Shown here piece by piece: positions 41,987 through 56,812 of a DNA stretch of 64,000 bases (position 1 is its first letter; every line of letters begins with the position of its first letter). A program made the translations under genes and the position numbers. Under the pieces are notes generated by a model that had not been told where the DNA came from, made no database searches, and saw only the letters and a program-made list of their open reading frames with translations. The stretch comes from Parachlamydiales bacterium (GTDB taxonomy: Bacteria > Chlamydiota > Chlamydiia > Chlamydiales > SM23-39), in assembly GCA_015661075.1 (NCBI GenBank), contig JACVQJ010000001.1, positions 81,347 through 145,346 of the forward strand, read 5' to 3'.

Positions 41987-44782
41987 TTGAGCGAATATCA
42001 CAGTAAATATTGGGCTTTCTCTTTATCTATTAAAAGCGCATCAGACAAGATCGAGAATCTTTCTCGCTCGATCGCCAATGCGAGCGTTGATCTCAATCCA
42101 CACCAAGTAAGGGCGGCCCTTTTCGCTCTCCAGTCACCTTTCCCCTTGTCTCGCGGAGTTATCCTCGCTGATGAAGTCGGCTTGGGCAAAACGATTGAAG
42201 CAGGGCTCGTCATCGCTCAACGATGGGCTGAAAAGAAACGCAAAATCCTTCTCATCGTCCCAGCCTTTCTTAGAAAGCAGTGGGAAATTGAACTACGAGA
42301 AAAATTTTACCTCACTTCTCGCATCTTAGATTCTAAAACAGCGCCTAAAAACAACCCCTTTGATAGCTCAGATGAAATCTTGATCTGCTCATATCAGTTC
42401 GCAGCTCAAAGAGCCGGTCAGTTGCCCAACCGATGGGATCTTGTCGTGATCGACGAAGCCCACCGCATGCGCAACGTTTACAAAAACTCGAATAAACAAG
42501 CCAAAGCCATTGCGGAAGCGCTTAAAGAAGCGCCTAAACTTCTTCTCACAGCCACCCCGCTCCAAAATAACCTCATGGAGCTTTACGGCCTCGTAAGCGT
42601 AATCGACCCCTACGTGTTCGGCGATGAAGCCACCTTCAAAGATCAATTCGTATCCAGAGATTTAGATGAACAGAAAAGCGCCATTCTAAAAAAGCGCCTT
42701 GAGCCTCTGATCATCCGTACCCTCCGAAAACAAGTTCAAGAATATATTCCCTTTACCAAGAGAATCCCCCTCACTCATAAGTTCATTCCGACAGATGACG
42801 AGCAACATCTGTACGAAGCCGTTTCAGCCTACCTACAAAGAAAGGATCTTGCTGCGCTTCCCAACAGTCAACGCCAGCTTATTACTCTTGTGCTGCGAAG
42901 GCTCCTTGCCTCTTCATCATTCGCCATCACAGAAACCTTGAAATCTATGATCCGCCGCCTCGAACGAGACGCGGGACCCTCCCATATTTTGGAAGAAATG
43001 GACCAAGAAATGATCGATTCCCTTGATGAAGAGGTGAGAGAACGGTTGATTGAATCCCTGCCTGATCAAGAAATGAACGCAAAAAAAGAGAAGATGCGAG
43101 AGGAGGCTCAGGAACTTAGATCTTATGTGGAGCTGGCTGAAAAAATCCGGAAAAACACAAAAGGTGAAACCCTCCTGATCGCTTTAGAAGAAGGCCTCAA
43201 AAAAGCCATCGAACTAGGAGCTGCTGGAAAAGCCGTTATTTTTACTGAATCAAGGAGAACTCAAGCTTATCTCTATGAACATCTTTCTGCAAATGGCTAC
43301 CAAGATCAAATCATCCAAATCAATGGATCAAACTCCGACGCAAAATCAAAAGCCATTTACGAAACTTGGATGAAAAAAGAGGCTAATTCCTTCCGAGCCA
43401 CCTCTAAATCAGTTGATATGAAAGCTGCTCTCGTCGACGCGTTCCGTGAACAAGGAACCATCCTTCTTGCCACTGAAGCCGCAGCAGAGGGCTTAAATCT
43501 TCAGTTTTGTTCGATCGTCGTCAATTACGACCTTCCCTGGAATCCACAACGAGTCGAACAAAGAATCGGCCGTTGTCATCGCTATGGACAAAAACATGAC
43601 GTCGTCGTCGTCAACTTCGTCAATATGGCCAACGAGGCTGATCAACGCGTCTTCGAACTCTTGAACGAAAAATTCAAACTCTTCGATGGCGTATTTGGCG
43701 CAAGCGATGAAATCCTTGGCGCGATTGTATCAGGAGTCGACATCGAACTTCGCATCCACCAGGTTTATCAAACATGCCGCTCTCCCGCCGAAATCCAGGA
43801 AGCATTCGACCGTCTTCGCCAAGAACTCGAAACGCAAATCCAGGAAAACATCCAGCAAACAAAAACGCATCTCCTCGATCACTTTGACCAAGACGTCGCC
43901 GACCTGCTGAAACTGCGAAACTCGCAAACCGAATCAACGCTTTCAAAGCGAGATCAATGGCTTTTATCCCTCCTATCACATGAGTTCGGCGTTCCCTTGC
44001 CTAAAAGCCCCGCACCATTTGCCCTGCCAGGGTCGACTCACCTTTACACGCTCAATTGGCAAGAAGCGCAAAAAACAGGCGCCCGTTTCTTACGCGAAGA
44101 CGATTTCATTATCGAATCTTCCCTTCAAAAAGCACTGAGCCATCAAACGCCACCCGCTGAACTTTGCTTTGATTACACGAAATACCCCAGTAAACTTTCC
44201 TTAATCGATCCCCTTGTTGGAAAAACAGGCTGGCTCGGCCTTTGGCTCTTTCAAGTAAAGACCTTTGAAGAAGAGCAATTCTTGCTATTCGCCGGTTACA
44301 CAGATGATAGCATTTCTCTCGACCACGAAACCTGTGAAAAACTATTCAATCTGTCTGCTAAAGCCCAACCGACTCATCTATCCCCGCCTTCCCTCGAATC
44401 GCTCCTTGCCGACAAACAAAAATCCCTCGTCTCCGACATCGAAAAAAGAGCTGGTACTCTCTTCGGAAAGGAGGTCGAAAAGCTCGATGATTGGGCAGAC
44501 GATTTCAAGGAAAGACTCGAGAAAGAAATTAAGACTCTCGATAAAGAAATCCGCGAGAAGAGGAAAGAGGCATCAAAAGCCCCAACTCTCGCAGAAAAGC
44601 TCCAAATCCAACAAACCATCAGGAATCTGGAAAAACAACGCGCCAAGAAACGCCACACGCTATTCGAAGAAGAAGATCGCATCGATGCCGAGCGCGATCA
44701 TGTGATACTGACCCACTCCCAATCCCTTCAGCCTCAACTCAGCACAACCCCCCTATTCCAGGTCCGGTTCAAAATCATATGA
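41987..44782 (+). CDS. SNF2-family helicase/ATPase
   Basis: LADEVGLGKT, DEAH, TATPLQN, NYDLPWNPQRVEQRIGRCHRYGQ; C-terminal coiled coil. Confidence 0.93.
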   Translation: MSEYHSKYWAFSLSIKSASDKIENLSRSIANASVDLNPHQVRAALFALQSPFPLSRGVILADEVGLGKTIEAGLVIAQRWAEKKRKILLIVPAFLRKQWEIELREKFYLTSRILDSKTAPKNNPFDSSDEILICSYQFAAQRAGQLPNRWDLVVIDEAHRMRNVYKNSNKQAKAIAEALKEAPKLLLTATPLQNNLMELYGLVSVIDPYVFGDEATFKDQFVSRDLDEQKSAILKKRLEPLIIRTLRKQVQEYIPFTKRIPLTHKFIPTDDEQHLYEAVSAYLQRKDLAALPNSQRQLITLVLRRLLASSSFAITETLKSMIRRLERDAGPSHILEEMDQEMIDSLDEEVRERLIESLPDQEMNAKKEKMREEAQELRSYVELAEKIRKNTKGETLLIALEEGLKKAIELGAAGKAVIFTESRRTQAYLYEHLSANGYQDQIIQINGSNSDAKSKAIYETWMKKEANSFRATSKSVDMKAALVDAFREQGTILLATEAAAEGLNLQFCSIVVNYDLPWNPQRVEQRIGRCHRYGQKHDVVVVNFVNMANEADQRVFELLNEKFKLFDGVFGASDEILGAIVSGVDIELRIHQVYQTCRSPAEIQEAFDRLRQELETQIQENIQQTKTHLLDHFDQDVADLLKLRNSQTESTLSKRDQWLLSLLSHEFGVPLPKSPAPFALPGSTHLYTLNWQEAQKTGARFLREDDFIIESSLQKALSHQTPPAELCFDYTKYPSKLSLIDPLVGKTGWLGLWLFQVKTFEEEQFLLFAGYTDDSISLDHETCEKLFNLSAKAQPTHLSPPSLESLLADKQKSLVSDIEKRAGTLFGKEVEKLDDWADDFKERLEKEIKTLDKEIREKRKEASKAPTLAEKLQIQQTIRNLEKQRAKKRHTLFEEEDRIDAERDHVILTHSQSLQPQLSTTPLFQVRFKII

Positions 44783-46419
44783 GGAAAGAGATGAAAAAAT
44801 CGCAAAAGTTAGAACTCACTTGGCCTGGCAAAGAAGATTGGGAGAAGCCGGAGCCGAGGCTGTTGTTGGAGAAAAGCTCTTACGGGACAAAGAAGGGCGC
44901 CGAAGAGAATTTGCTGATATACGGCGATAACCTATTAGGGCTGAAAGCACTTGAGAGAGATTATACTGGAAAAGTGAAGTGCGTTTGTATCGATCCGCCC
45001 TATAACACGAAAAGCTGCTTTACCCACTACGACGACTCAATGGAACATTCCATGTGGCTCAATATGATGAAAGAGCGACTTATTATTTTAAGACGACTTC
45101 TGAGAGAGGATGGGTCGATTTGGATCAATATTGATGACGGAGAGTGTCACTATTTGAAGGCATTATGCGATGAAATTTTTGGCAGAAGAAACTATATTGG
45201 CTCACTTATTTGGAAAAAAAGAAAAGGTGGAGGCAATGATTCTTCATTCTTTTCAACTGATCACGAATACGTTCTTTCCTACGTAAAGAACTCTGATAAA
45301 AAAATTCACTCAAAAAAATGGCGAACCCCTCATGAAGATAAAAACTTAAAACGCTATAAAGAAACAAACCATGACGGAAGATTATTTTATTGGGATACTT
45401 TAAATCGACAGGGATTAAAAAACCCAATCCCTATCGAACTAAAAGCTCCAGACGGGAAAATACTTAAAATACTATCTCAAAGATCTAGATACACTGTATT
45501 ATCTGAGATTAAATCAGGGGATATTCGTTTTTCAAAAACAAGTAATGGATGGAGTTTGCATCGAAAAGTTTTTCTGAATAGAGAAGGTCAAGTTCTTCGA
45601 TCTATTCTGTCTGTGGGCACTAATAGCGATGCCAAAGAGGAATTAAAAAAACTTATAAGCAAAACTCACGATTTTGAATATCCAAAACCAGAATCTTTGA
45701 TACACCAAATACTTCTCCTGACTACCACCCCAGGCGACCTCGTCCTCGACTGCTTTGCTGGCTCTGGGACGACCGGAGCAGTCGCCCACAAAATGAAGCG
45801 CCGCTGGATCATGGTCGAATTCAATGGCCCCTGCCACTCTCATATCATTCCCCGCTTGCAAAAAGTCGTCGACGGCGTAGATTTGGGCGGCATTACCGAG
45901 TCCGTAAATTGGAAAGGCGGAGGTGGCTTCCGTTACTGCGAATTAGCCCCCTCACTTTTAGAGAAAAACAAATTCAATCGATGGATGATTAGCAAAAAAT
46001 ATAACCCTGTCATGCTCATCGAGGCGATGTGTTTGCATGCGGGATACACCTTTAATCCAAAAAGAGAGCCTTGGTGGATGCACGGACAATCGACCGAAGA
46101 CGATTTCATATTCGTTACGGGTGCTACCCTAACCCGTACTCAATTACTGCAAATGAGCCAAGAGCTTGAGGACACCCAGTCTCTGCTCGTCTACTGTGGT
46201 GCCTTCAAAGCCGATCCAAAAGAATTTGAAAATCTCACCATAAAAAAAATCCCCAAATCAATCCTCAACAAATGCGAATGGGGCAGAGATGATTACAGCC
46301 TTAAAATCGCTCTTCAAGAGGAAGCAAAACAAGCAAATAAGAAAAAGCCTAAAAAACAACAAGCGACATCCAGCGATATTATCCGCATGCCTTTGGCTGC
46401 TCAGGGAGTTCGATCATGA
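44779..46419 (+). CDS. mod: Type III R-M adenine methyltransferase (Mod-like, beta class)
   Basis: GDNL, IDPPY, YPKPE, DCFAGSGTT. Confidence 0.9.
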   Translation: MRKEMKKSQKLELTWPGKEDWEKPEPRLLLEKSSYGTKKGAEENLLIYGDNLLGLKALERDYTGKVKCVCIDPPYNTKSCFTHYDDSMEHSMWLNMMKERLIILRRLLREDGSIWINIDDGECHYLKALCDEIFGRRNYIGSLIWKKRKGGGNDSSFFSTDHEYVLSYVKNSDKKIHSKKWRTPHEDKNLKRYKETNHDGRLFYWDTLNRQGLKNPIPIELKAPDGKILKILSQRSRYTVLSEIKSGDIRFSKTSNGWSLHRKVFLNREGQVLRSILSVGTNSDAKEELKKLISKTHDFEYPKPESLIHQILLLTTTPGDLVLDCFAGSGTTGAVAHKMKRRWIMVEFNGPCHSHIIPRLQKVVDGVDLGGITESVNWKGGGGFRYCELAPSLLEKNKFNRWMISKKYNPVMLIEAMCLHAGYTFNPKREPWWMHGQSTEDDFIFVTGATLTRTQLLQMSQELEDTQSLLVYCGAFKADPKEFENLTIKKIPKSILNKCEWGRDDYSLKIALQEEAKQANKKKPKKQQATSSDIIRMPLAAQGVRS

Positions 46420-48902
46420 ATACGATTAGAAAACAAATCAAAGACCGGATGAGTCTGCGGAAGCCGCAGGAAGCTTCGCTCGAATGCTTGGAACGCCTTG
46501 TCGAACTGATTCCGATGAACCCCGACAAGTGTGACCTTCAGCCGATCGAAGAACTCGTCAGACAGGCATTCCCCGAATTTGAGGCATTCGAAAGAAACTT
46601 TCCCAATGTTTGCTTTGCTTTAGCAACGGGGGTTGGAAAAACCCGCTTGATGGGAGCGATGATCGCATATTTAGCGGAAGCTAAAGGAATTCGCAATTTT
46701 GTCGTGTTAGCTCCGAATACTACGATCACGGAAAAATTAGAGCGTGAATTCCAGGCAAAAGACCCTAAATATATTTTTAAGGGACTCCCTGAGTTTGCGA
46801 ATCGAACTCCCCGGATTATAACCGGCGAAAATTACGAGGACATGTCATCCCTTCTCGCAAGGCCCGGCTCAGATGATTTTAATCCTGAGTCGATCACCGT
46901 CAGCATCTTCAACATCGCGCTGTTACATACCAAAGAGCGTAAAATACGACGTCCCAATGAAAAAATCGATAATTCTTTGAGCCCTTTTGATTATCTCGCA
47001 TCTCGGAAGGATTTGGTTGTTTTCATGGACGAAGCTCATCATTGTCGAGCCAAGGCGGGAGCAAGGACGATTGAAGAATTAAATCCCATTTTAGGAATCG
47101 AGCTAACTGCCACGCCACAAACTCAATCAAGCAAAAGCGAAATCCCTTTCCGGAACATCGTCTATCGGTTTACGTTGCCAGAGGCGCTCAAAGCTGAATA
47201 CCTGAAAAGATTGGGCATTGGGGGGCGCTCGGATTTCGATTGCTCGACTTTCTCCGACGAACGTCTGGAAAGATTGAAATTAGAAGACGGGTTGACCGTT
47301 CATCGCAATTTACAGGCTGAGCTTTGGAACTACACAAGCCAAAGAAATATTAAATCCGTTAAACCATTCGTGCTTGTGATTGCAAGGGATACAGCCCATG
47401 CCAACCAAATTGAAGAACTCATCAAAAGTCCAGTGTTTCTGGGTGGGCGCTATGCGAATAAAGTCCTAACCGTGCATTCGCAGCAAAGCGGCGAGGAAAA
47501 AGAAGAAACTGTTCGCCAGCTTCTTGCAGTCGAGTCACCTGAAAACCCGATTGAAATCGTCATTCACGTCAATATGCTTCGAGAGGGCTGGGATGTAACC
47601 AATCTCTACACAATTATCCCTTTGCGAAGAGCCAAATCTTTGACACTTATTGAACAATCACTGGGCCGAGGAGCGAGGCTCCCTTTCGGAAAACGGACAG
47701 GGGTCGACCTCATCGATAGACTATATGTTGTCTACCATGAAAACTTCCAAAAAGTTGTATCTGAAGCGGACAAATATCTCGAAGTGATGGAAAAAATAGA
47801 AATAGGCAAGTTTCCTCCTGAACCGCCTCAACCGGTTGTTGTTCATCCTGTTGGAACTCACATTATCCCTGAACCTCCCTTGAAGCCCACAGAGAATCCA
47901 CAGGAATACGAAGGATCTCCTGTCACCTCACCTCCGGAACCAGTTACGGAAGAAATGCCCCCTTTGCAACATCTCAAGATACCTCGGATTATCATTCAGC
48001 CTGATCCAAACGCAAAACAAGATAGATTTCGCTCCTTCACGCTCAATCTCCAAGGGTTCGGCCCTCAGCCGGTTGATACCCCAATCGTATTCATAGATCC
48101 TACTTCTAAAGAAAAAACAAAATTCCACTCTAGAATCTCCTCACATATCGAACAAAAACCAGAGGAGGTGATCATGAACAATTTACTCGACTACAATGGG
48201 GTGGCCGATACGGAAGAAAACGGACATGTAGCTTCCGAATTAGCAATACAGATGGTCCAGCACCTGCGCTCCTATCTTATTGAAGATATGGTAAAGCTTG
48301 TCGTCCATCAACACAGGTCGGCAATCACTGATGAAATTTACAGACAAATGCGAGAAAATGATGAGCCTGGCGAGGAAAAATGGATTCATTCAATCGGCAA
48401 GGGATTTTTAACATTTGGAAGTGCCTCTTACCTAATTGCCGCCGACCAAGGGCCGGAACATTATAGAGAACCTCTTAATGTGAGAAAAATTGAATCAATT
48501 CTTTGGTCTGGATTCCAAAAATCCCTCTATCCAATGATGAAATTTCACTCTGACGCCGAGCGGCAATTCGCCATTATGCTTGAATCTGATGAATCAGTAA
48601 TTTCTTGGGTTAAACCACCTAAGGGAAAATTTTGGATTTACTACCGAAAGGATACTCCCTACGAGCCTGATTTTGTCGTCGAGACTCGAAATGGGAAATA
48701 TCTTTGCGAAGTGAAAGATCGAACCAAAATCGAGGACGCGATCGTTAAAGAAAAAGCAAAGGCGGCTGTTTATTGGTGCCAAGCGGCAAACGAATGCACG
48801 GACAAAGAATGGAAATATCTCTTGATTCCAGATAATGCGATTACCATGGCTACGACTTTTGCAGCCTATGCCAGCCGACATGAATGGAGGGTTCGGTCAT
48901 GA
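46416..48902 (+). CDS. res: Type III R-M restriction subunit (SF2 helicase plus C-terminal PD-(D/E)XK nuclease)
   Basis: ATGVGKT, DEAH, TAT, LREGWD, QSLGRGAR, YEPDFVVE...EVK. Confidence 0.88.
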   Translation: MNTIRKQIKDRMSLRKPQEASLECLERLVELIPMNPDKCDLQPIEELVRQAFPEFEAFERNFPNVCFALATGVGKTRLMGAMIAYLAEAKGIRNFVVLAPNTTITEKLEREFQAKDPKYIFKGLPEFANRTPRIITGENYEDMSSLLARPGSDDFNPESITVSIFNIALLHTKERKIRRPNEKIDNSLSPFDYLASRKDLVVFMDEAHHCRAKAGARTIEELNPILGIELTATPQTQSSKSEIPFRNIVYRFTLPEALKAEYLKRLGIGGRSDFDCSTFSDERLERLKLEDGLTVHRNLQAELWNYTSQRNIKSVKPFVLVIARDTAHANQIEELIKSPVFLGGRYANKVLTVHSQQSGEEKEETVRQLLAVESPENPIEIVIHVNMLREGWDVTNLYTIIPLRRAKSLTLIEQSLGRGARLPFGKRTGVDLIDRLYVVYHENFQKVVSEADKYLEVMEKIEIGKFPPEPPQPVVVHPVGTHIIPEPPLKPTENPQEYEGSPVTSPPEPVTEEMPPLQHLKIPRIIIQPDPNAKQDRFRSFTLNLQGFGPQPVDTPIVFIDPTSKEKTKFHSRISSHIEQKPEEVIMNNLLDYNGVADTEENGHVASELAIQMVQHLRSYLIEDMVKLVVHQHRSAITDEIYRQMRENDEPGEEKWIHSIGKGFLTFGSASYLIAADQGPEHYREPLNVRKIESILWSGFQKSLYPMMKFHSDAERQFAIMLESDESVISWVKPPKGKFWIYYRKDTPYEPDFVVETRNGKYLCEVKDRTKIEDAIVKEKAKAAVYWCQAANECTDKEWKYLLIPDNAITMATTFAAYASRHEWRVRS

Positions 48903-49648
48903 AACCTTCTAAAGAGTCTAAGCCTGAAAAAAAATTGAAACTCAGCCGAACCAAGATCGAACTCTTTTGCGAATGCCCCCGTTGTTTCATTCTCGATCGA
49001 AAGTTCGGCATTACACGACCTGGCGGACCTCCCTTCACGCTCAATAACGCGATCGACGCCCTGTGGAAAAAGGAATTCGACCGCTATCGAATCGAACAAA
49101 AACCCCACCCTATCCTACTCCAAAACGGCTTCGATATTATCCCATTTAGGCATGAAAGCATCGACGATTGGAGAAATAATCGTCGAGGGGTCCAATTCCT
49201 GCATGAGCCTACCCAGTTTCTGGTCTACGGCGCCCCGGACGAGATTTGTATCAATGGAGACGAAGAACTCGTTGTCGTCGACGTGAAAGCTACCAGCAAG
49301 GCAACTGAGATCAATCTCGATGCTGATTGGCAAATCAGCTACAAGCGGCAAATGGAGATCTATCAATGGCTCCTTCGGCAAAATGGCTTTAAGGTCTCTA
49401 AGCGAGGCTATTTTGTCTACTGCAATGGAAAAAAGGATGAAAGCTCTTCTGGCTGCTCTCTAGCATTTGATGTTTCTGTGCTTCCATACGATGGCAACGA
49501 CTCCTGGATCGAGCCAAAAATCCTTGAAATCAAGAGCCTTATGGATACAGAACTACTTCCTGATGCAACGACCGGATGCAAGTTCTGCCATTACACCCAA
49601 GTTGCTTCTCAGTTTAGTCCAGGTAACTCGCAGAAAATCAACGCCTAA
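48899..49648 (+). CDS. PD-(D/E)XK nuclease with Cas4/AddB-like Cys arrangement
   Basis: CPRCF, GAPDE, VVDVK, QMEIY, CKFC; GGAGG RBS and ATGA overlap with res. Confidence 0.82.
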   Translation: MKPSKESKPEKKLKLSRTKIELFCECPRCFILDRKFGITRPGGPPFTLNNAIDALWKKEFDRYRIEQKPHPILLQNGFDIIPFRHESIDDWRNNRRGVQFLHEPTQFLVYGAPDEICINGDEELVVVDVKATSKATEINLDADWQISYKRQMEIYQWLLRQNGFKVSKRGYFVYCNGKKDESSSGCSLAFDVSVLPYDGNDSWIEPKILEIKSLMDTELLPDATTGCKFCHYTQVASQFSPGNSQKINA

Positions 49649-49719
49649 GATACAATCCGCATTGGATGCACCGGTCAAAACCAGGTGATTTCCCTAATGA
49701 TTTCGATATAAGGGGGAAC

Positions 49720-50286
49720 ATGGGAAAGTGGTGGCGTTATTGGAGGAACAAAGGGCACAAGGCCAAGAGCAGAGTCGAACATTACCAGTGCCTCGATTGC
49801 TCGCAATGCTACGATAAGAGGAAATATCCATTTGAAGAGGGCGAGGATGCCTGGTTTCATGGATGGCATCTGAATCTTTTCCCCTCTCATGCTCTAGCCA
49901 CATTCTCAAGCCAGGAGAAACAATTCCGCTATCCGATTCCGGTGGTTGCAACCAATTGCCATTACGGGGGACAGCGCCATTGGTTTTTGTGCCCCCTCCC
50001 CTCCTGCAAGCGTCGCAGCAAAAAGCTTTACCTCTATACCGAGGGTCTTTTTCTTTGCAGGAAATGCCTAAAACTCGCCTATTCCACTCAGAATCGCTCA
50101 GACACTGATCGAATCATAGGTAAAAAATGGGCTTTGATTCGAAAATACGGAGGCGATTCCGAATGGGACATTAAGAGACCCAAGGGAATGCATCAAAAAA
50201 CGTTCGATCGAATACGAGATAAAATCTGGCGACTGGAGGAACTGGCCATGCAGAAAATCGGAGAGGCTTTCGGTAAATTTTCGTGA
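49720..50286 (+). CDS. Zinc-ribbon hypothetical protein typical of integrative elements
   Basis: HYGGQRHWFLCP..C.RR..KLY...FLCRKC.KLAYSTQ, RPKGMH. Confidence 0.65.
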   Translation: MGKWWRYWRNKGHKAKSRVEHYQCLDCSQCYDKRKYPFEEGEDAWFHGWHLNLFPSHALATFSSQEKQFRYPIPVVATNCHYGGQRHWFLCPLPSCKRRSKKLYLYTEGLFLCRKCLKLAYSTQNRSDTDRIIGKKWALIRKYGGDSEWDIKRPKGMHQKTFDRIRDKIWRLEELAMQKIGEAFGKFS

Positions 50287-50457
50287 ATGTAGGTTCCTTC
50301 ATCTATCGTTGTGTGCATCGTGGTGTTTGTCGCATTGAATTCAAAATCAGCTCTTTAAGCGGCCTGCACACGATACTCACCTTACACATGGCTTCAGCTT
50401 CCTTGAAAGCAATGCGAGCCCGGGTCTATACTCTTCAAGTGAAAATCAGAGGATCGA

Positions 50458-50768
50458 TTGTTAGAAGAGCTACTGGCAAAATCTGAAAGCAAGCCGCTTG
50501 AATTCAAAGAAAACGCCCATACCCTTTCCAAAATCGTCCAAACGATAATCGCCTTTGCCAACACTGCTGGCGCACTCTCGTTATTGGAATCCAGGATAAG
50601 AGCAAAAACGTCATCGGCATTGAGAATATCCTACAAGACGAGGAATGCATCGCGAACGCCATGACCAAACTCGGCAAGCCCGACGAGATCAATCAGCTAT
50701 TTACGGGATTCCAAAAATATCTCTATACAAACCGTGGTTTCGGCTCTCAGACACATGATAGGTCATAG
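50458..50768 (+). pseudogene. Frameshifted, truncated AlbA_2/Schlafen-domain fragment
   Basis: ESKPLEFKE...IIAFANTAG, then after a 1-nt frameshift TLVIGIQD...VIGI; truncated. Confidence 0.75.
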
Positions 50769-50838
50769 CAAATATAGAAAATATTTTGTATAGAAGGTTT
50801 TGGCTGGAACTTGTTATCCTCTCTGCAGGAGTTGGTTG

Positions 50839-51579
50839 ATGTCTGAGCATAGTTCTTATCCTAATCCTCCCATTGTCGAAGCGATTTTTGATGTCCAAAT
50901 GGAATTGCCACAAGACGTTGGGATTGCAGAACTTGAAACATTTGGTAAAACTGTCGCTTCTGACTATCCGGAAAAAAAAACACGACGCAAGTTTGCCAGC
51001 AAATTTGAGATCAAGGATGAAGAGCCCTCTGCCGAAGCTTTTAATCTAGGCATAGCAGGGATTCTTAATTGGTCACCTGATCATAGGCAGGCGCTGCAGG
51101 TTCGTTTAGACGGATTCAGCTTTTCGCGATTAAAGCCCTATGAGAAATGGGATGTACACTTTACGGAGTTCCTAAAATGTTTAAGGCTATACTGTGAGCA
51201 CATTTCTCCGATCCAAATCAAACGGGTTGCAACTAGATTCATCAACGTCATCGAACTTCCCCGTGAAAATCTGAATTGGGGGGAATATTTTATCAATGCT
51301 GCAAGAACTCCAATTCCCGATGCTGTAGCGACTAACTTCTTTGATCGCGTTGAGTTCACATTTCCCTCATCAAGCGTTAAGGCCTCCGTTACACATGCCA
51401 TGATGCAGTCAAATGACCCGCTTAAATTGCCCGTAGTTCTAGACATCGAGACATTTGTGGATATGAACAATAAACCTGATCTCATAATGATTGAAAAGCT
51501 ATTCCAAAATTTGAGAGAAACGAAAAATCAAATTTTCCAAAATAGTTTGACTGATAAAACGAAGGGGTTATTTAAATGA
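50839..51579 (+). CDS. TIGR04255-family protein
   Basis: YPNPPIVEAIFDV, FSFSRLKPYEKW, KRVATRFINVI, VLDIE, KNQIF; AGGAG RBS. Confidence 0.85.
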   Translation: MSEHSSYPNPPIVEAIFDVQMELPQDVGIAELETFGKTVASDYPEKKTRRKFASKFEIKDEEPSAEAFNLGIAGILNWSPDHRQALQVRLDGFSFSRLKPYEKWDVHFTEFLKCLRLYCEHISPIQIKRVATRFINVIELPRENLNWGEYFINAARTPIPDAVATNFFDRVEFTFPSSSVKASVTHAMMQSNDPLKLPVVLDIETFVDMNNKPDLIMIEKLFQNLRETKNQIFQNSLTDKTKGLFK

Positions 51580-52052
51580 GCCTTTTTCCGTTCTCAACTT
51601 CACAATATGCATCAGGGGTAAGTTCTACTTCTTATGATTTGGATGTGTGCGTGCAGCAACTCCGTAACCATGCTGAAGATGCAGTGCTTTTTGGATGGAA
51701 AACTCTCCTTCGTCATGATTTAATGACTGCTTATCAAGATTGTTGTGAAGAAGGATGGAATGGCTATGATGCAGAGCCTATTACCAAACAAACAATTCTT
51801 GCAGGAGAAACATTGCTGGAACTGCTCCCGGACAATGTAATGCCACCGGAAGTGTTACCGGAACCAACGGGAAAAATTAGCTTCGCATGGCGTAACGCTG
51901 CCGGAGCCACCCTTGTAATAGCTGTAGATTCTAACTCCATAGCCTTCGCAGAATTGATTGGCTCCAAGAAACGATATGGAGAAGCAAAATTTTTATCTGC
52001 GCTACCGGATGACATGAAGAAACCGCTTCTGGACTATTTTGGATGGACCTAA
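51576..52052 (+). CDS. Hypothetical protein coupled to the TIGR04255 gene
   Basis: GWNGYDAEPI, P.PEVLPEPTG.ISFAW; ATGA overlap. Confidence 0.75.
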   Translation: MSLFPFSTSQYASGVSSTSYDLDVCVQQLRNHAEDAVLFGWKTLLRHDLMTAYQDCCEEGWNGYDAEPITKQTILAGETLLELLPDNVMPPEVLPEPTGKISFAWRNAAGATLVIAVDSNSIAFAELIGSKKRYGEAKFLSALPDDMKKPLLDYFGWT

Positions 52053-52447
52053 CCACCTTGAACAGTCGTGTTGAAGATTTTGAAACCATTGCACGCTTTA
52101 TCTTTTCGAGCAGTGAGTACAGGGTTTCGGATCAAACGGTAAAACATACGGCCTTCCTGCCCGCTCGCGACATGGCTGCCTCGGTATACAGAATCGACGG
52201 CTGTTCCGAAGACGAAATCTCACAAATCGATCAAAAATATGTCTCGGGTCAAAGAACAGACAAAAAAGTTTCAAAGGGACGTGCCGATATATTGGTTAGG
52301 CAGGTGCGGAAAGCTCAACTTAATGTCATATCTAATCCATCGCCTCACCCACGTCATGCCGATATTGTGGGTTATTCATCAGAGGCCGAAAATCGGATGA
52401 AGGCCATAGAGCTTGCTCAAAATGCCGAACTTGTTCTCAAGAAATAG
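52043..52447 (+). CDS. Small protein with possible ADP-ribosyltransferase/RES-like pattern
   Basis: E.IARF...AFLP....SVYR...HPRHADIVG; overlaps the upstream gene. Confidence 0.6.
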   Translation: MDLTTLNSRVEDFETIARFIFSSSEYRVSDQTVKHTAFLPARDMAASVYRIDGCSEDEISQIDQKYVSGQRTDKKVSKGRADILVRQVRKAQLNVISNPSPHPRHADIVGYSSEAENRMKAIELAQNAELVLKK

Positions 52448-52713
52448 GGGCTTTCTCCTTTTCAAAGATCGGTGCAAGAACGGTGCCCTGACGCACTCCC
52501 ATTCCTGGTTGACGGTCCGGGGGATGACTTTGAGTCCAGCTTCATGGAAGAGCTCAACAGTAGACGCAGAAAGCAGTACGGCATCGGTGGAGGCGGTTCT
52601 GGCTCCTAGATCCGCCGCTTTATTTTATCTCAGACAGGAAACCCTGAAGAACCCTGAAGTCCAAAGCTTCAGCGTTCGCTCGTTGAAGAAGAACCGCTGT
52701 CCCAGGAGCCAAA

Positions 52714-52734
52714 TGACCACTGGATGACCACTAA
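52714..52734 (+). promoter_or_regulatory. Putative integrase arm-binding site pair (right)
   Basis: TGACCACT-GGA-TGACCACT-AA, about 110 bp before attR. Confidence 0.7.
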
Positions 52735-52845
52735 GAGCCAAAAACTGGCAACAGATGCCCTAAAATCGCAATAGATTGAAATCCCACAAGTCCCTTATAG
52801 TTTTGCTGTTAGTTAATGCGATGTGATGCCAATAAGAGGCACACC

Positions 52846-52897
52846 GCGGACTCATAACCCGTCGGTCCCTGGTTCAAGTCCAGGTTGCCCCACATTT
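52846..52897 (+). repeat. attR of island 1 (3' part of the tRNA); also the left boundary of island 2
   Basis: gcggactcataacccgtcggtccctggttcaagtccaggttgccccacattt. Confidence 0.93.
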
Positions 52898-53042
52898 ATT
52901 TTAGGCTTCATAAAGCTAAAGTTGAGGCATTTGCGTAATAGCGAACAAATCAGCCCAAAGCGTGGTTCACATCCGTGGACCACCCGCCTGCAACAATTGG
53001 CGATAGAAGCACCATCCTCCGCCTTCAAATAGCAGCTAACCT

Positions 53043-53904
53043 TTGAAAACTGATAACAAAGGAAAAGCTGTGAAAGGCATTGACAAACGCATCCACAAAG
53101 ACGGGACTGTTTCTTACCGCACCCGAGTCCGCATCAAAGGACACCCAGTCCTCATCCAATCATTCGCTTCCAAAAATCTCGCCATGAAATGGAAACGCGA
53201 TACTGAATCAGCAGTTGAGCAAGGAAAATATGCATATGACCACCCCAGCAGCAAAAATACTTTAGCGGAGCTAATCGATCGCTATATTGAAAGAGTTCTT
53301 CCGTCAAAACCAAAAAATGCAAGAAACGTCCGCCAACATCTTCTCTGGTGGAAACAAGAACTGGGACGCTGCCTCCTTTCAGATATCAAGCCAAGCCTCA
53401 TCTCACAGAAACGCGATGAGCTGCTTTCAGGGCTGACTTACAAAGGCACAATCCGTTCTTTAACAACTGTCGTCCACTATCTCGCTAGCCTATCTCATGC
53501 CTTTGCGATTGGTGTTAAAGATTGGGAATGGATACAGGAAAATCCGATCATGAAAATCTAAAAGCCGAAAATTTCCAATGGAAGAACTCGCTTTCTCAAC
53601 GATGATGAAAAGGAAAGGCTGCTATCTGCCTGCCGAGAAAGCGAATCAAAAGGACTCTACCCAATTGTTATACTAGCTCTTTCAACAGGCATGAGGAGAG
53701 GAGAAATCATGAATCTCAAATGGAGCGATATAGATTTAGCCCAAGGTTCAATCCTCTTACAAACCACAAAGAATGGTGAGCGGCGTTTTATCCCTCTTGT
53801 CGGAACAGCTCTAGATCTTTTGCGTTCAAAATACGCCAATCAAACCGTTGACTCTCTCGTATTTCCCGCTCCACATTCTCCATGTAAACCTATTGACATC
53901 CGCA
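53043..53904 (+). pseudogene. Second tyrosine integrase, inactivated
   Basis: Paralog of 36624..37733; in-frame TAA at 53559-61; continues through TGMRRGE and TKNG, truncated after PIDIR with no HxxR or Tyr. Confidence 0.9.
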
Positions 53905-54030
53905 ATATCGTCATATTTAAGGACTTGTAAAGATGGGTCGAACCCTCTATACTTTCCTTGAAATTTATTGGCCCTAAATGGAAGAGAAACTTCAAGCCAC
54001 CCAAAAATCATCCTCTTGTGCCAAAATCGC
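53902..54030 (+). repeat. ~130-bp imperfect direct repeat, copy 1
   Basis: Matches 63804-63933 at roughly 85% by manual alignment. Confidence 0.85.
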
Positions 54031-56812
54031 TCTATTCCGCTCCCTTTTTCGAGGACGCGAAGATCTATATCCCCGTCGATTCGAAAGTAAAAAAACGGGA
54101 AAATCAGGCTACTCACCCGCGTGTGGTAATGAGTGGGTCCGAGGAATTTGCGAAAAGCCGAAAATCAAATGCTCTGAATGCAGACATCGCAAGCTCTTAC
54201 CCGTAGCCTACGATGTGGTACGATGGCACCTTTCCGGTCACGATGATTTTGGAAAAGATTTCGTCATGGGCATTTATCCGATGCTGCTCAACGAAACCTG
54301 CTTCTTTCTAGCTGCCGATTTTGATAAGTCCAGCTGGGAAGAGGACGCCAGGGCTTTTCTAAAAACCTGTCAAGGGTTGAACTTGCCCGCGGCTTTGGAG
54401 CGCTCCCGCTCGGGAAAGGGGGCCCATGTCTGGTTATTTTTTGCTGAAGCAATTCCAGCCATACTCGCGCGAAAATTGGGATGTCATATTCTTACTGAAA
54501 CGATGGAACATCGGCCGGATGTCGGACTTGATTCTTATGACCGATTCTTTCCCAACCAAGACACGTTGCCTCAAGGAGGATTTGGAAATCTAATTGCCCT
54601 GCCCCTACAAAAGAAAGCTCGAGATCTTGGAAATAGCGTGTTTGTGAATGAGGATTTGATCGCTTACGAGGACCAATGGGCATTTCTTTCATCTTTAGGC
54701 AAGATCCCTCGTCAGGAAGCTGAGGCAATTGTCCATCGCGCTGAAGGAAAGGGGCGTATTATTGGAACTCACCTAAGAATAGTGAGCGAAGAAGATGATC
54801 TCACCCCCTGGAACAGGCAATTCATTCCCAGCAAAATCCTTCTTCCATCTACAGATTTGCCAGAAAGTTTAGAGATCATTATTGGGAATGAAATTTACAT
54901 CCCTAAAAATGAGTTGTCTCCAGGTCTAAGAAACCGATTAATCCGTCTTGCGGCGTTTCCAAATCCCGAGTTTTATAAAGCCCAGGCAATGCGACTTCCC
55001 ACGCATGAAACACCCAGAATGATTTCTTGTGTCGCAGATTACCAAGATCACATAGGACTACCACGAGGCTGTCTTGAAGATATCTATCACTTGTTTTCAG
55101 AGTTGAAAATCAAATTAACGATTCGAAATGAGCTCCAGTCAGGGACGTTTCTCAATACAAAATTTCTAGGGGAGCTCAGAGGGGAACAAAAAACAGCTGC
55201 AGCGACCATGCTGAAAACAGATTTTGGCGTGTTGTCAGCGACTACAGCCTTCGGAAAAACTGTGATTGGTGCATGGCTTATCTCAAAACGAAAAGTAAAT
55301 ACCTTGATTCTTGTACACCGCAAGCAACTGCAAGAGCAGTGGATAGAGCGGTTATCCACATTTCTCGAATTGCCAAAAAATGCCATAGGCCGTATTGGTG
55401 GCGGGAGAAAGAAACCAACCGGGCTAATCGATATAGCAGTGATTCAGAGTCTTGTGCGTAAAAATATTGTGGATGATGTAGTCTCTCAATATGGGCATCT
55501 GATCGTTGATGAATGCCACCATTTGCCAGCGTTCAGCTTTGAGCAAGTTGCTCGCCACTCAAAAGCAAAATTCATCACAGGTTTGACCGCTACCGTAACT
55601 CGAAAGGATGGTCATCACCCGATTATCCTCATGCGATGCGGACCTGTAAGATATCGAGTCGATGCCAAAACGGCTGCCATGTTGCGCCCTTTCGAACATA
55701 CTGTTTTTGTCAGACCTACTTCTTTCGCTCCAGTGAAGCCCGCTAATGAAGATACACGCCTTCGATTCCATGATTTATATGAGGAAATCATCCGAGATGA
55801 TGAACGCAATCGGTTGATTTTTAATGATGTGGTGAGTGCAGTCCAAAGAGGCAGATCCCCCATCATACTCACTGAACGAAACGATCATCTTGATTGTTTG
55901 TTTGAAAAGCTTTCCCCTCATATCCATCATCTGATAGTGCTTCGTGGAGGCATGAGTTCAAAAGAGATCGCTCAAGCGACCAGCCGTTTAGCCACTATCC
56001 CAGCAAATGAAGCTAGAGTTCTTCTTGCGACAGGCAAATTTGTCGGCGAAGGATTTGACGATGCACGTCTAGATACTCTATTTCTTACCATGCCTATTTC
56101 ATGGAAAGGAACCATCGCACAGTATGTTGGCAGGCTCCATCGTCTGTATGCACAAAAACAAGAAGCACAGGTCTATGATTATGCAGATCTTGGCGTACCT
56201 ATGTTGGAAAGGATGTTCAATCGGCGATGCCAGGGATATGAAGCAGTGGGATATAAGATCCTTCTTCCCGCCAGCGCTATTCCTGGATGGCCAGCGGAAG
56301 TGCCTCTTCCAGTTGACCCAACCTGGAAAGCAGATTATGCGGGCAGTGTGAAAAGACTGATTCGCGACGGCGTGGACATGCCCTTGGCCCACCTTTTTGT
56401 TCAGGTCGCTTCACATTTTCCTCCTGAAGCGGAAGGAGCTGACCGCGCGCGTAGTGCAACGGAACGTTTTTTATTCCGCCGCCTAGAGACAATCGCTCAA
56501 ACAGCTGGGCAATTTCGACTGAATGCAGGACTTGATATTCCTTTCGATGGGTGGGGCCAAATGGAAGTAGATCTGCTCTGTATGAATGCTCATCTTGCGA
56601 TTGAACTTGATGGCGCCCAGCATCTTGGCAATGCTGAGGCCTATCGCCGAGACCGGCGCAAAGATGCTTTGTTACAGGAAAATGGCTATACAGTTTTGCG
56701 ATTCTTAAGCGAAGATGTCGGCAAACATCTCGATGATGTCCTGGATTCAATTCTTCGCACCATAAGCCACTTGAGAAAGCGTGAGACAAGAGAAGACCTA
56801 CATTCGCAATAG
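53978..56812 (+). CDS. TOTE-type AEP primase-like domain + SF2 helicase + DUF559/Vsr-like endonuclease fusion
   Basis: LFRGRED.Y, AADFD, ERSRSGKGAHVW, GNLIALP; TAFGKT, DECH, TAT, QYVGR; VDL..LAIELDG.QH...DRRKD.LLQENGY.VLRF. Confidence 0.85.
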   Translation: MEEKLQATQKSSSCAKIALFRSLFRGREDLYPRRFESKKTGKSGYSPACGNEWVRGICEKPKIKCSECRHRKLLPVAYDVVRWHLSGHDDFGKDFVMGIYPMLLNETCFFLAADFDKSSWEEDARAFLKTCQGLNLPAALERSRSGKGAHVWLFFAEAIPAILARKLGCHILTETMEHRPDVGLDSYDRFFPNQDTLPQGGFGNLIALPLQKKARDLGNSVFVNEDLIAYEDQWAFLSSLGKIPRQEAEAIVHRAEGKGRIIGTHLRIVSEEDDLTPWNRQFIPSKILLPSTDLPESLEIIIGNEIYIPKNELSPGLRNRLIRLAAFPNPEFYKAQAMRLPTHETPRMISCVADYQDHIGLPRGCLEDIYHLFSELKIKLTIRNELQSGTFLNTKFLGELRGEQKTAAATMLKTDFGVLSATTAFGKTVIGAWLISKRKVNTLILVHRKQLQEQWIERLSTFLELPKNAIGRIGGGRKKPTGLIDIAVIQSLVRKNIVDDVVSQYGHLIVDECHHLPAFSFEQVARHSKAKFITGLTATVTRKDGHHPIILMRCGPVRYRVDAKTAAMLRPFEHTVFVRPTSFAPVKPANEDTRLRFHDLYEEIIRDDERNRLIFNDVVSAVQRGRSPIILTERNDHLDCLFEKLSPHIHHLIVLRGGMSSKEIAQATSRLATIPANEARVLLATGKFVGEGFDDARLDTLFLTMPISWKGTIAQYVGRLHRLYAQKQEAQVYDYADLGVPMLERMFNRRCQGYEAVGYKILLPASAIPGWPAEVPLPVDPTWKADYAGSVKRLIRDGVDMPLAHLFVQVASHFPPEAEGADRARSATERFLFRRLETIAQTAGQFRLNAGLDIPFDGWGQMEVDLLCMNAHLAIELDGAQHLGNAEAYRRDRRKDALLQENGYTVLRFLSEDVGKHLDDVLDSILRTISHLRKRETREDLHSQ

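Follow-up and report, generated by a model that had tools for sequence, protein, structure and literature searches.

A helicase-led Type III restriction-modification operon on a tRNA-Met element of an environmental chlamydial genome, and its apparent nuclease companion

In a 64,000-nucleotide stretch of DNA from an environmental chlamydial genome (Parachlamydiales bacterium, contig JACVQJ010000001.1; the whole analysed stretch is hereafter called the window), four open reading frames (ORFs) spanning 41987-49648 and all running in one direction encode a SNF2-type ATPase, the methyltransferase (Mod) and restriction subunit (Res) of a restriction-modification (R-M) system of Type III, and a Cas4-like nuclease. 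We report here that SNF2, Mod and Res are a real unit, shared by different phyla and replicons and by three Type III subfamilies, that the nuclease is not part of this unit, and that a 16.4-kb element, inserted at a tRNA-Met gene, carries the operon as its cargo. The account we hold to be probable is that of a helicase-led Type III R-M system carried on this element and accompanied by a nuclease of the solo-Cas4 family which is not peculiar to this kind of system. Within Chlamydiota this nuclease is apparently a lineage-specific and undescribed companion of restriction systems; literature searches returned no paper on the chlamydial pattern of nuclease and R-M genes, nor on SNF2, Type III and Cas4 in combination.

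The first-pass annotation of the window had proposed an extended, four-part R-M-like system. Its SNF2 part stands, because this gene is found together with mod and res in different phyla, on different replicons and next to three subfamilies of Type III genes. A metagenome scan, for which an alignment of eight SNF2 relatives served as the query, yielded 80 loci; 31 of these hold a full-length SNF2 gene together with at least 8 kb of downstream sequence, and both Mod and Res are found on the same strand in 28 of the 31 (one of the other three has Mod only, at the point where the locus ends, and two have neither). Where 1.5-8 kb of downstream sequence is available, Mod is present in 15 of 20 loci. 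The SNF2 protein also matches 148 plasmid records, and the three that were opened, from E. coli, Salmonella and a planctomycete, all read SNF2-Mod-Res, as does one E. coli chromosome; the E. coli and plasmid SNF2 relatives beside Type III genes match over their full length, at 44%. Three Type III subfamilies stand next to SNF2 (PADLOC 03636/03648, 03634/03647 and 03646/03654). When the R-M subtype is mapped onto an SNF2 tree with 51 rows, 8 changes suffice, compared with a mean of 18.9 after shuffling; the subtype thus clusters, with several switches, and the chlamydial SNF2 genes form three separate clades.

The trio is already in print. For Eco86II, BspHIV and more than 500 genomes, Murray et al. 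(2021; PMC8259958) report that a helicase-like ATPase gene is conserved 5' of mod, and they characterize the Eco86II-type ATPase as being of unknown function, dispensable for methylation and absent from the partly purified enzyme. A preprint by Silas et al. (bioRxiv 10.1101/2023.04.06.535777) places a drmD-related SNF2 gene beside EcoR22I in E. coli ECOR22; there, mod and res alone sufficed for restriction of lambda-vir and for Ocr-triggered cell death, and transposon hits were confined to these two genes. The earlier statement that no functional characterization was known is accordingly too strong for the trio since these two sources show that Mod and Res work without the helicase.

SNF2 and Mod abut in about 17 of the metagenome loci; elsewhere, a slot of 0.8-7.7 kb lies between them and holds varied defence genes. 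In the window this slot is empty, as the two genes overlap by ATGA. Among loci L112-L187 the cargo of the slot includes OLD with UvrD (L168), SIR2 with HerA (L126), an AAA protein with an S8 protease and SIR2 (L160), AIPR (L148, L176 and L185), GmrSD (L132), a MAD3-like ATPase with DUF4276 (L164) and a PIN toxin pair. Some metagenome loci have a second slot, situated between mod and res.

The description of the four ORFs themselves has held up on direct reading: ATGA stands at all three junctions (44779-44782, 46416-46419 and 48899-48902), and the catalytic motifs of SNF2, Mod, Res and nuclease are all present and intact. Some 8 nucleotides upstream of the Res and nuclease starts lie GGGAG and GGAGGG, respectively, and the nuclease ORF, called as 48884-49648 (254 amino acids), contains an in-frame ATG at 48899 that yields a protein of 249 amino acids. 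The SNF2 protein comprises SNF2-rel_dom and Helicase_C domains with the motifs GLGKT65, DEAH156, TATP188 and QRIGRCHR525, scores 691 bits against the PADLOC DrmD model PDLC02619, and has RapA as its nearest solved relative by sequence. The NCBIfam model DISARM_DrmD_b (NF038318) matches it at 695 bits, against a cut-off of 950, over profile positions 22-655 of 868; the last ~270 residues lie outside this match, are its own, and lead to unnamed protein clusters. Mod matches PF01555 (170 bits) and PADLOC MTase_III (573 bits), and shows the beta-class order, with DPPY72 (motif IV) preceding FAGSG326 (motif I). Res (PADLOC REase_III, 461 bits) combines ResIII with an endonuclease domain at its C-terminus, and its motifs (GVGKT72, DEAH205, QSLGRGAR414 and PD751...EVK767) are those of a superfamily 2 (SF2) helicase joined to a PD-(D/E)XK nuclease. 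An SNF2 ATPase gene that lacks a nuclease domain stands immediately 5' of mod and in the same orientation, and the locus is probably a helicase-led Type III system. The + strand of 41760-41986 has no ORF of 31 or more amino acids, and hence no helix-turn-helix (HTH) gene before SNF2. When 41600-53000 was scanned for promoters and terminators, sites were less frequent than in shuffled sequence, and so offer no support for operon boundaries or promoter function. Coordinates are collected in Table 1.

Table 1. Features of the tRNA-Met element and its operon (window coordinates).
Feature	Position	Strand	Size and evidence
DrmD-like SNF2 ATPase, ~270-aa C-terminal region of its own	41987..44782	+	931 aa, TTG start; domain, PADLOC, NCBIfam, motif and PDB matches
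Type III Mod, beta-class amino-methyltransferase	44779..46419	+	546 aa; domain, PADLOC and motif matches
Type III Res, SF2 motor + PD-(D/E)XK nuclease	46416..48902	+	828 aa; domain, PADLOC and motif matches
Solo-Cas4-family (PF12705) nuclease, four invariant cysteines	48899..49648	+	Domain, motif, alignment
AT-rich leader that lacks an HTH gene; single weak promoter-like site (41930-41958)	41760..41986	+	ORF and promoter scan
tRNA-Met gene, integration target	36422..36496	+	ARAGORN, anticodon CAT
attL, 52-nt direct repeat from 3' part of tRNA-Met	36449..36500	.	Repeat search (family D1)
attR, second 52-nt repeat copy, 98% identical	52846..52897	.	Repeat search
Tyrosine integrase of the element, A type	36624..37733	+	Phage_integrase 113 bits; 75% homologue, same position, in L104
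DUF927 primase/helicase-like backbone gene of the element	39522..41759	+	PF06048 261 bits; 65% homologue precedes SNF2 in L104
orf206, Cys-rich 206-aa ORF after nuclease in A-type elements	49666..50286	+	Homologue position

The nuclease belongs to the PDDEXK_1 family (PF12705; 48 bits, cut-off 22). Its RecB-type motifs are D114, D128-V-K130 and Q151xxxY155, of which the residues D114, D128, K130, Q151 and Y155 show no variation among 27 sequences, and C26, C29, C227 and C230 are likewise invariant in 27 homologues. The iron-sulfur (Fe-S) cysteines of Cas4 and AddB are spaced C...CxxCx5C, which differs from the CxxC...CxxC arrangement of the nuclease; the four-cysteine set would fit a putative metal or Fe-S site, and a Cas4-like fold is predicted from the sequence of the protein. 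When the nuclease profile was searched against the sequences of the PDB nothing significant was returned, the best relevant match being 4ic1 (E 0.097). A CRISPR-associated Cas4 was considered and rejected: the protein scores below both Cas4 cut-offs (Cas_Cas4, PF01930, 20.8 against 22.7; TIGR00372 cas4, 31 against 65), and the 14 ORFs scanned include no cas family, such as a cas1/cas2 adaptation module, CRISPR arrays as such not having been searched for.

A search for relatives of the nuclease gave 586 confirmed, of which the best 80 were kept, most of them from Patescibacteria at 50-59% identity. Outside Chlamydiota the gene mostly stands alone among housekeeping and repair genes. With R-M queries, a match was found within 6 kb of the nuclease in 6 of these best 80 loci, four of the six being chlamydial, and 74 of the 76 non-chlamydial loci had none. 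On the side of SNF2, the nuclease is in none of the 80 metagenome loci and in none of the four annotated plasmid or E. coli loci opened. On account of its absence from these loci and its other R-M partners in Chlamydiota, the nuclease is not a fixed fourth component. Two patescibacterial homologues (L005:10001-10714 and L057:2957-3673) contain 2 and 1 in-frame stops, respectively, under translation table 11, and may reflect another genetic code or broken genes.

Within Chlamydiota, the nuclease is present in 42 of 401 genomes (51 places), and SNF2 in 16 of 400; 15 of those 16 also carry the nuclease. Thirty-two chlamydial nuclease loci were examined, 18 places, many of them fragments, having been left out, and in 30 of the 32 the nuclease lies directly beside a methyltransferase-based restriction system. 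The neighbour may be SNF2 with Type III genes, in two gene orders and two subfamilies, a Type I system, an MmeI-like enzyme with a helicase, a 5-methylcytosine methylase-HindVP-Vsr set (Type II), or either of two BREX-related layouts. The two orders with Type III genes are Res-nuclease, as in the window, and nuclease-SNF2 with overlapping ends, as in L003, L102, L103 and L105. The remaining two loci, L205 and L212, have housekeeping surroundings, and on a nuclease tree of 40 rows these two copies group with the outgroup, with weak support.

A further comparison is provided by a second, B-type integrase, a broken copy of which lies behind attR in the window. At 78% identity or above it occurs in 24 places, of which 20 were examined and four (fragments or contig ends) left out. 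Seven of the 20 have R-M cargo, and in all seven the nuclease stands between integrase and cargo; the 13 examined places without R-M cargo, the second element of the window included, have no nuclease, their cargo being TOTE, Mrr-helicase or a DUF4379-helicase protein, or else genes for metabolism and transport. Across Chlamydiota, the nuclease tracks R-M cargo of at least five kinds, and it does not track the remaining cargo of such islands. In two genomes (L214:10437-14234 and L218:3196-6981), the B-type integrase is directly followed by a protein of ~1260 amino acids, an unexplained single-gene cargo in which DUF4379 zinc-finger repeats, six in all, are combined with an SF2 helicase and a Methyltransf_8 domain.

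In a Type III system, a Mod dimer recognizes and hemimethylates a short asymmetric site, on one strand, and cleavage of unmethylated DNA by the Mod2Res complex follows once inverted sites have communicated in an ATP-triggered manner. In the account that we favour, the SNF2 protein would be a double-stranded DNA translocase that acts as an accessory and not as a stable subunit of the enzyme, a role we assign to it because its published relatives restrict and methylate without it. Most likely it would widen or safeguard restriction, for example where the DNA is blocked or covered by protein, or through a coupling to extra effectors in the slot behind SNF2. The nuclease, whose role is less well supported than that of SNF2, may be a DNA-end-processing exonuclease that acts on breaks made by any such restriction system, where it would destroy restricted DNA or process self-inflicted breaks.

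Several observations weigh against this account. The nuclease is near only 17 of 59 N6_Mtase places in Chlamydiota and present in only 18 of 45 N6_Mtase-positive genomes, and because most chlamydial Type I and IIG loci lack it, it is not required for restriction. Two of the 30 positive loci (L003 and L105) are contig ends at which only the SNF2 gene is visible; and since the loci are related, and some came to light by way of the nuclease, the counts overstate their independence. Among the sequencing runs listed, four DNA runs cover the stretch and no RNA run does. The genome has a full-length RecB-like gene, on which ground we also rejected the idea of a host that lacks RecBCD and needs the nuclease for its DNA ends. 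Finally, nine integrase-linked copies of the nuclease are nearly identical, forming one tight clade in which the cargo beside them has been swapped between Type I and SNF2 with Type III, and this would also fit a backbone gene beside a cargo slot.

A broader proposal is that the chlamydial solo-Cas4 branch is a general restriction companion, a DNA-end nuclease repeatedly recruited to act downstream of any methyltransferase-based system, whether Type I, II, III, MmeI-like or BREX-related. The nuclease would then complete the destruction of invader DNA once cleaved, or help the host to tolerate restriction systems that it has newly acquired, and the helicase-led Type III system would be one client among several. 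We regard this proposal as possible, and put it forward tentatively.

That the nuclease is instead a backbone gene, serving the recombination or replication of the integrative elements themselves and merely flanking their cargo slot with no role in restriction, we consider unlikely. Its position is suggestive in this regard, being either between integrase and cargo or, together with orf206, at the cargo's far end, and in a comparison of the window with L001 the conservation of nuclease (88%) and orf206 (76%) far exceeds that of Mod (51%) and Res (39%). These points must be set against the 13 places with the same integrase and no R-M cargo, the TOTE element of the window among them, from which the nuclease is absent without exception. 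The nuclease is also found head-to-head with R-M operons, at varied distances from any integrase, and its start or stop overlaps the adjoining restriction gene in several layouts.

That SNF2, Mod, Res and the nuclease work as one complex, an obligate machine of four parts, is very improbable. Overlap at all three junctions, the near-constant presence of the nuclease in SNF2-positive chlamydial genomes and its adjacency to the trio in two different orders would each be expected of such a machine. The nuclease is nevertheless missing from every metagenome, plasmid and E. coli locus considered above, and nucleases of its clade also accompany systems of Type I and Type II, MmeI-like ones and BREX-related ones, none of which has such an SNF2. 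Moreover, since the chlamydial SNF2 genes fall into three separate clades, the pairing of SNF2 with the nuclease has been assembled repeatedly within the phylum. Adjacency is also interrupted in L001 (7275-8123), L100 (16048-16890) and L191 (10369-11229), where a DUF4357 gene of ~280 amino acids separates the nuclease from the restriction gene, in loci of two restriction types. This DUF4357 gene, which in the archaeal locus L021 adjoins a Type III Res, may be a second recurrent companion of restriction systems. We give equally little credence to an independent, single-gene defence or repair function that is near R-M genes merely through the clustering of defence genes in islands, which would suit the stand-alone copies outside Chlamydiota and those of L205 and L212, since the chlamydial neighbour is specifically methyltransferase-based, is never the TOTE, Mrr-helicase or DUF4379-helicase protein found beside the same type of integrase, and directly adjoins or often overlaps the nuclease.

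The element that carries the operon is delimited by the two att repeats, whose 26-nt core has only two copies in the window where none would be expected by chance. Between them lie the integrase, the DUF927 gene, the four operon genes, orf206 and a few small genes, and the closest relatives of the operon genes are in Chlamydiales genomes. No family matched orf206 in searches of domain libraries; it has eight cysteines (CLDC, CRKC and others), and its homologues lie directly 3' of the nuclease in L001, L103 (55%) and L193 (47%), whatever the restriction type, so that nuclease and orf206 may constitute a pair. In an A-type element of genome G111 (L104:1575-6360) the SNF2 homologue is split by an insert of ~2 kb, with residues 1-400 and 398-930 apart, and intact Mod, Res, nuclease and orf206 follow. 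Behind attR, at 53043-53930, the broken B-type integrase consists of two fragments that share ~92% identity with their B-type counterpart in related genomes; behind it, at 53978-56812, comes a TOTE primase-helicase-DUF559 gene, a 96% identical copy of which adjoins an intact B-type integrase in L217. This second element looks like the tandem accretion of elements at a single tRNA-Met. Elsewhere, 50443-50768 holds two overlapping frames with an ESKPLEFK-like stretch, judged by eye, that resemble a frameshifted remnant of AlbA_2/Schlafen type. A perfect 45-bp tandem duplication is found at 34314-34403, inside the minus-strand ORF 33921-35015, and an imperfect 33-bp tandem at 34641-34706.

The SNF2-Mod-Res trio is widespread, from clinical enterobacterial plasmids to uncultured bacteria; the locus in the window, being free of slot cargo, is a clean example that can be cloned. 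If the tracking of R-M cargo by the nuclease reflects function, it would point to a step shared by these systems after or around restriction, such as the handling of DNA ends, which is invisible from any single restriction type. In that case, a large and unexplained solo-Cas4 family would gain a testable job.

Among named systems, Eco86II and BspHIV (PMC8259958) resemble the locus in that an SF2-type ATPase gene without a nuclease motif lies immediately 5' of mod and res. The window adds the Cas4-like nuclease to this layout and lacks the small HTH leader, and to judge from the E. coli and plasmid relatives the Eco86II ATPase and the SNF2 of the window may share a clade. EcoR22I has a longer Res (catalytic D1024/D1043), like subtype C, whereas the Res of the window is of subtype A; the available portion of the preprint (bioRxiv 10.1101/2023.04.06.535777) reports no nuclease companion for EcoR22I, unlike the window.

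The annotation had also drawn a link to DISARM class I, which holds for SNF2 as a near relative of DrmD and fails for the locus itself. DISARM class 1 is composed of DrmD, DrmMI, DrmA, DrmB and DrmC (bioRxiv 10.1101/2021.12.28.474362). The likeness lies in a DrmD-related SNF2 directly before an adenine-type methyltransferase and then a helicase-type restriction component; the differences are that the methyltransferase of the window is PF01555 and not PF13659, and that the C-terminal region of its SNF2 differs. The 14 ORFs of 35237-56812 contain neither DUF1998 (DrmB) nor PLD (DrmC) domains, and DrmA is absent. With DrmA, DrmB and DrmC missing, a methyltransferase that is not DrmMI, and an SNF2 below the cut-offs of both DrmD equivalog models (NF038318, as given above, and NF038317, 249 bits against 610), we rejected an assignment to DISARM class 1.

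Two further systems share parts with the loci described here. According to Liu et al. (2026; PMC13069673), the DrmD-like SNF2 of ietHAS (Liu-DS4) is essential for the neighbouring effector pair IetA/IetS. An AAA and S8-protease pair occupies the SNF2-Mod slot of L160, the slot in the window being empty. As regards MADS, the NCBI MAD1 model matches the small HTH gene before the E. coli relative (82 bits, cut-off 80), and the slot of L164 holds a MAD3-like ATPase with DUF4276, which is the domain of Mad4 according to PMC13662399 and PMC12065111. The window has no counterpart of the MAD1 HTH leader or of the MAD3/MAD4 ATPase-Toprim pair, and none of the MADS models searched matched its SNF2, Mod or Res.

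For the nuclease, the relevant account is that of Hudaiberdiev et al. (2017; PMC5704561), who report that solo-Cas4 is common in bacteria of the Candidate Phyla Radiation and in DPANN archaea, that it adjoins R-M genes in several DPANN genomes, and that most UvrD-Cas4-like fusions have genes for a Mod and a Res of Type III beside them. These fusions are the nearest precedent, with the difference that the nuclease of the window is a separate gene and its helicase an SNF2 and not a UvrD protein. The near-constant pairing of the nuclease with many R-M types in Chlamydiota goes beyond what the accessible part of that account holds. We therefore place the locus as a known, unexplained kind of Type III system with a lineage-specific nuclease companion, whose mechanism we infer and whose pairing with restriction systems looks undescribed.

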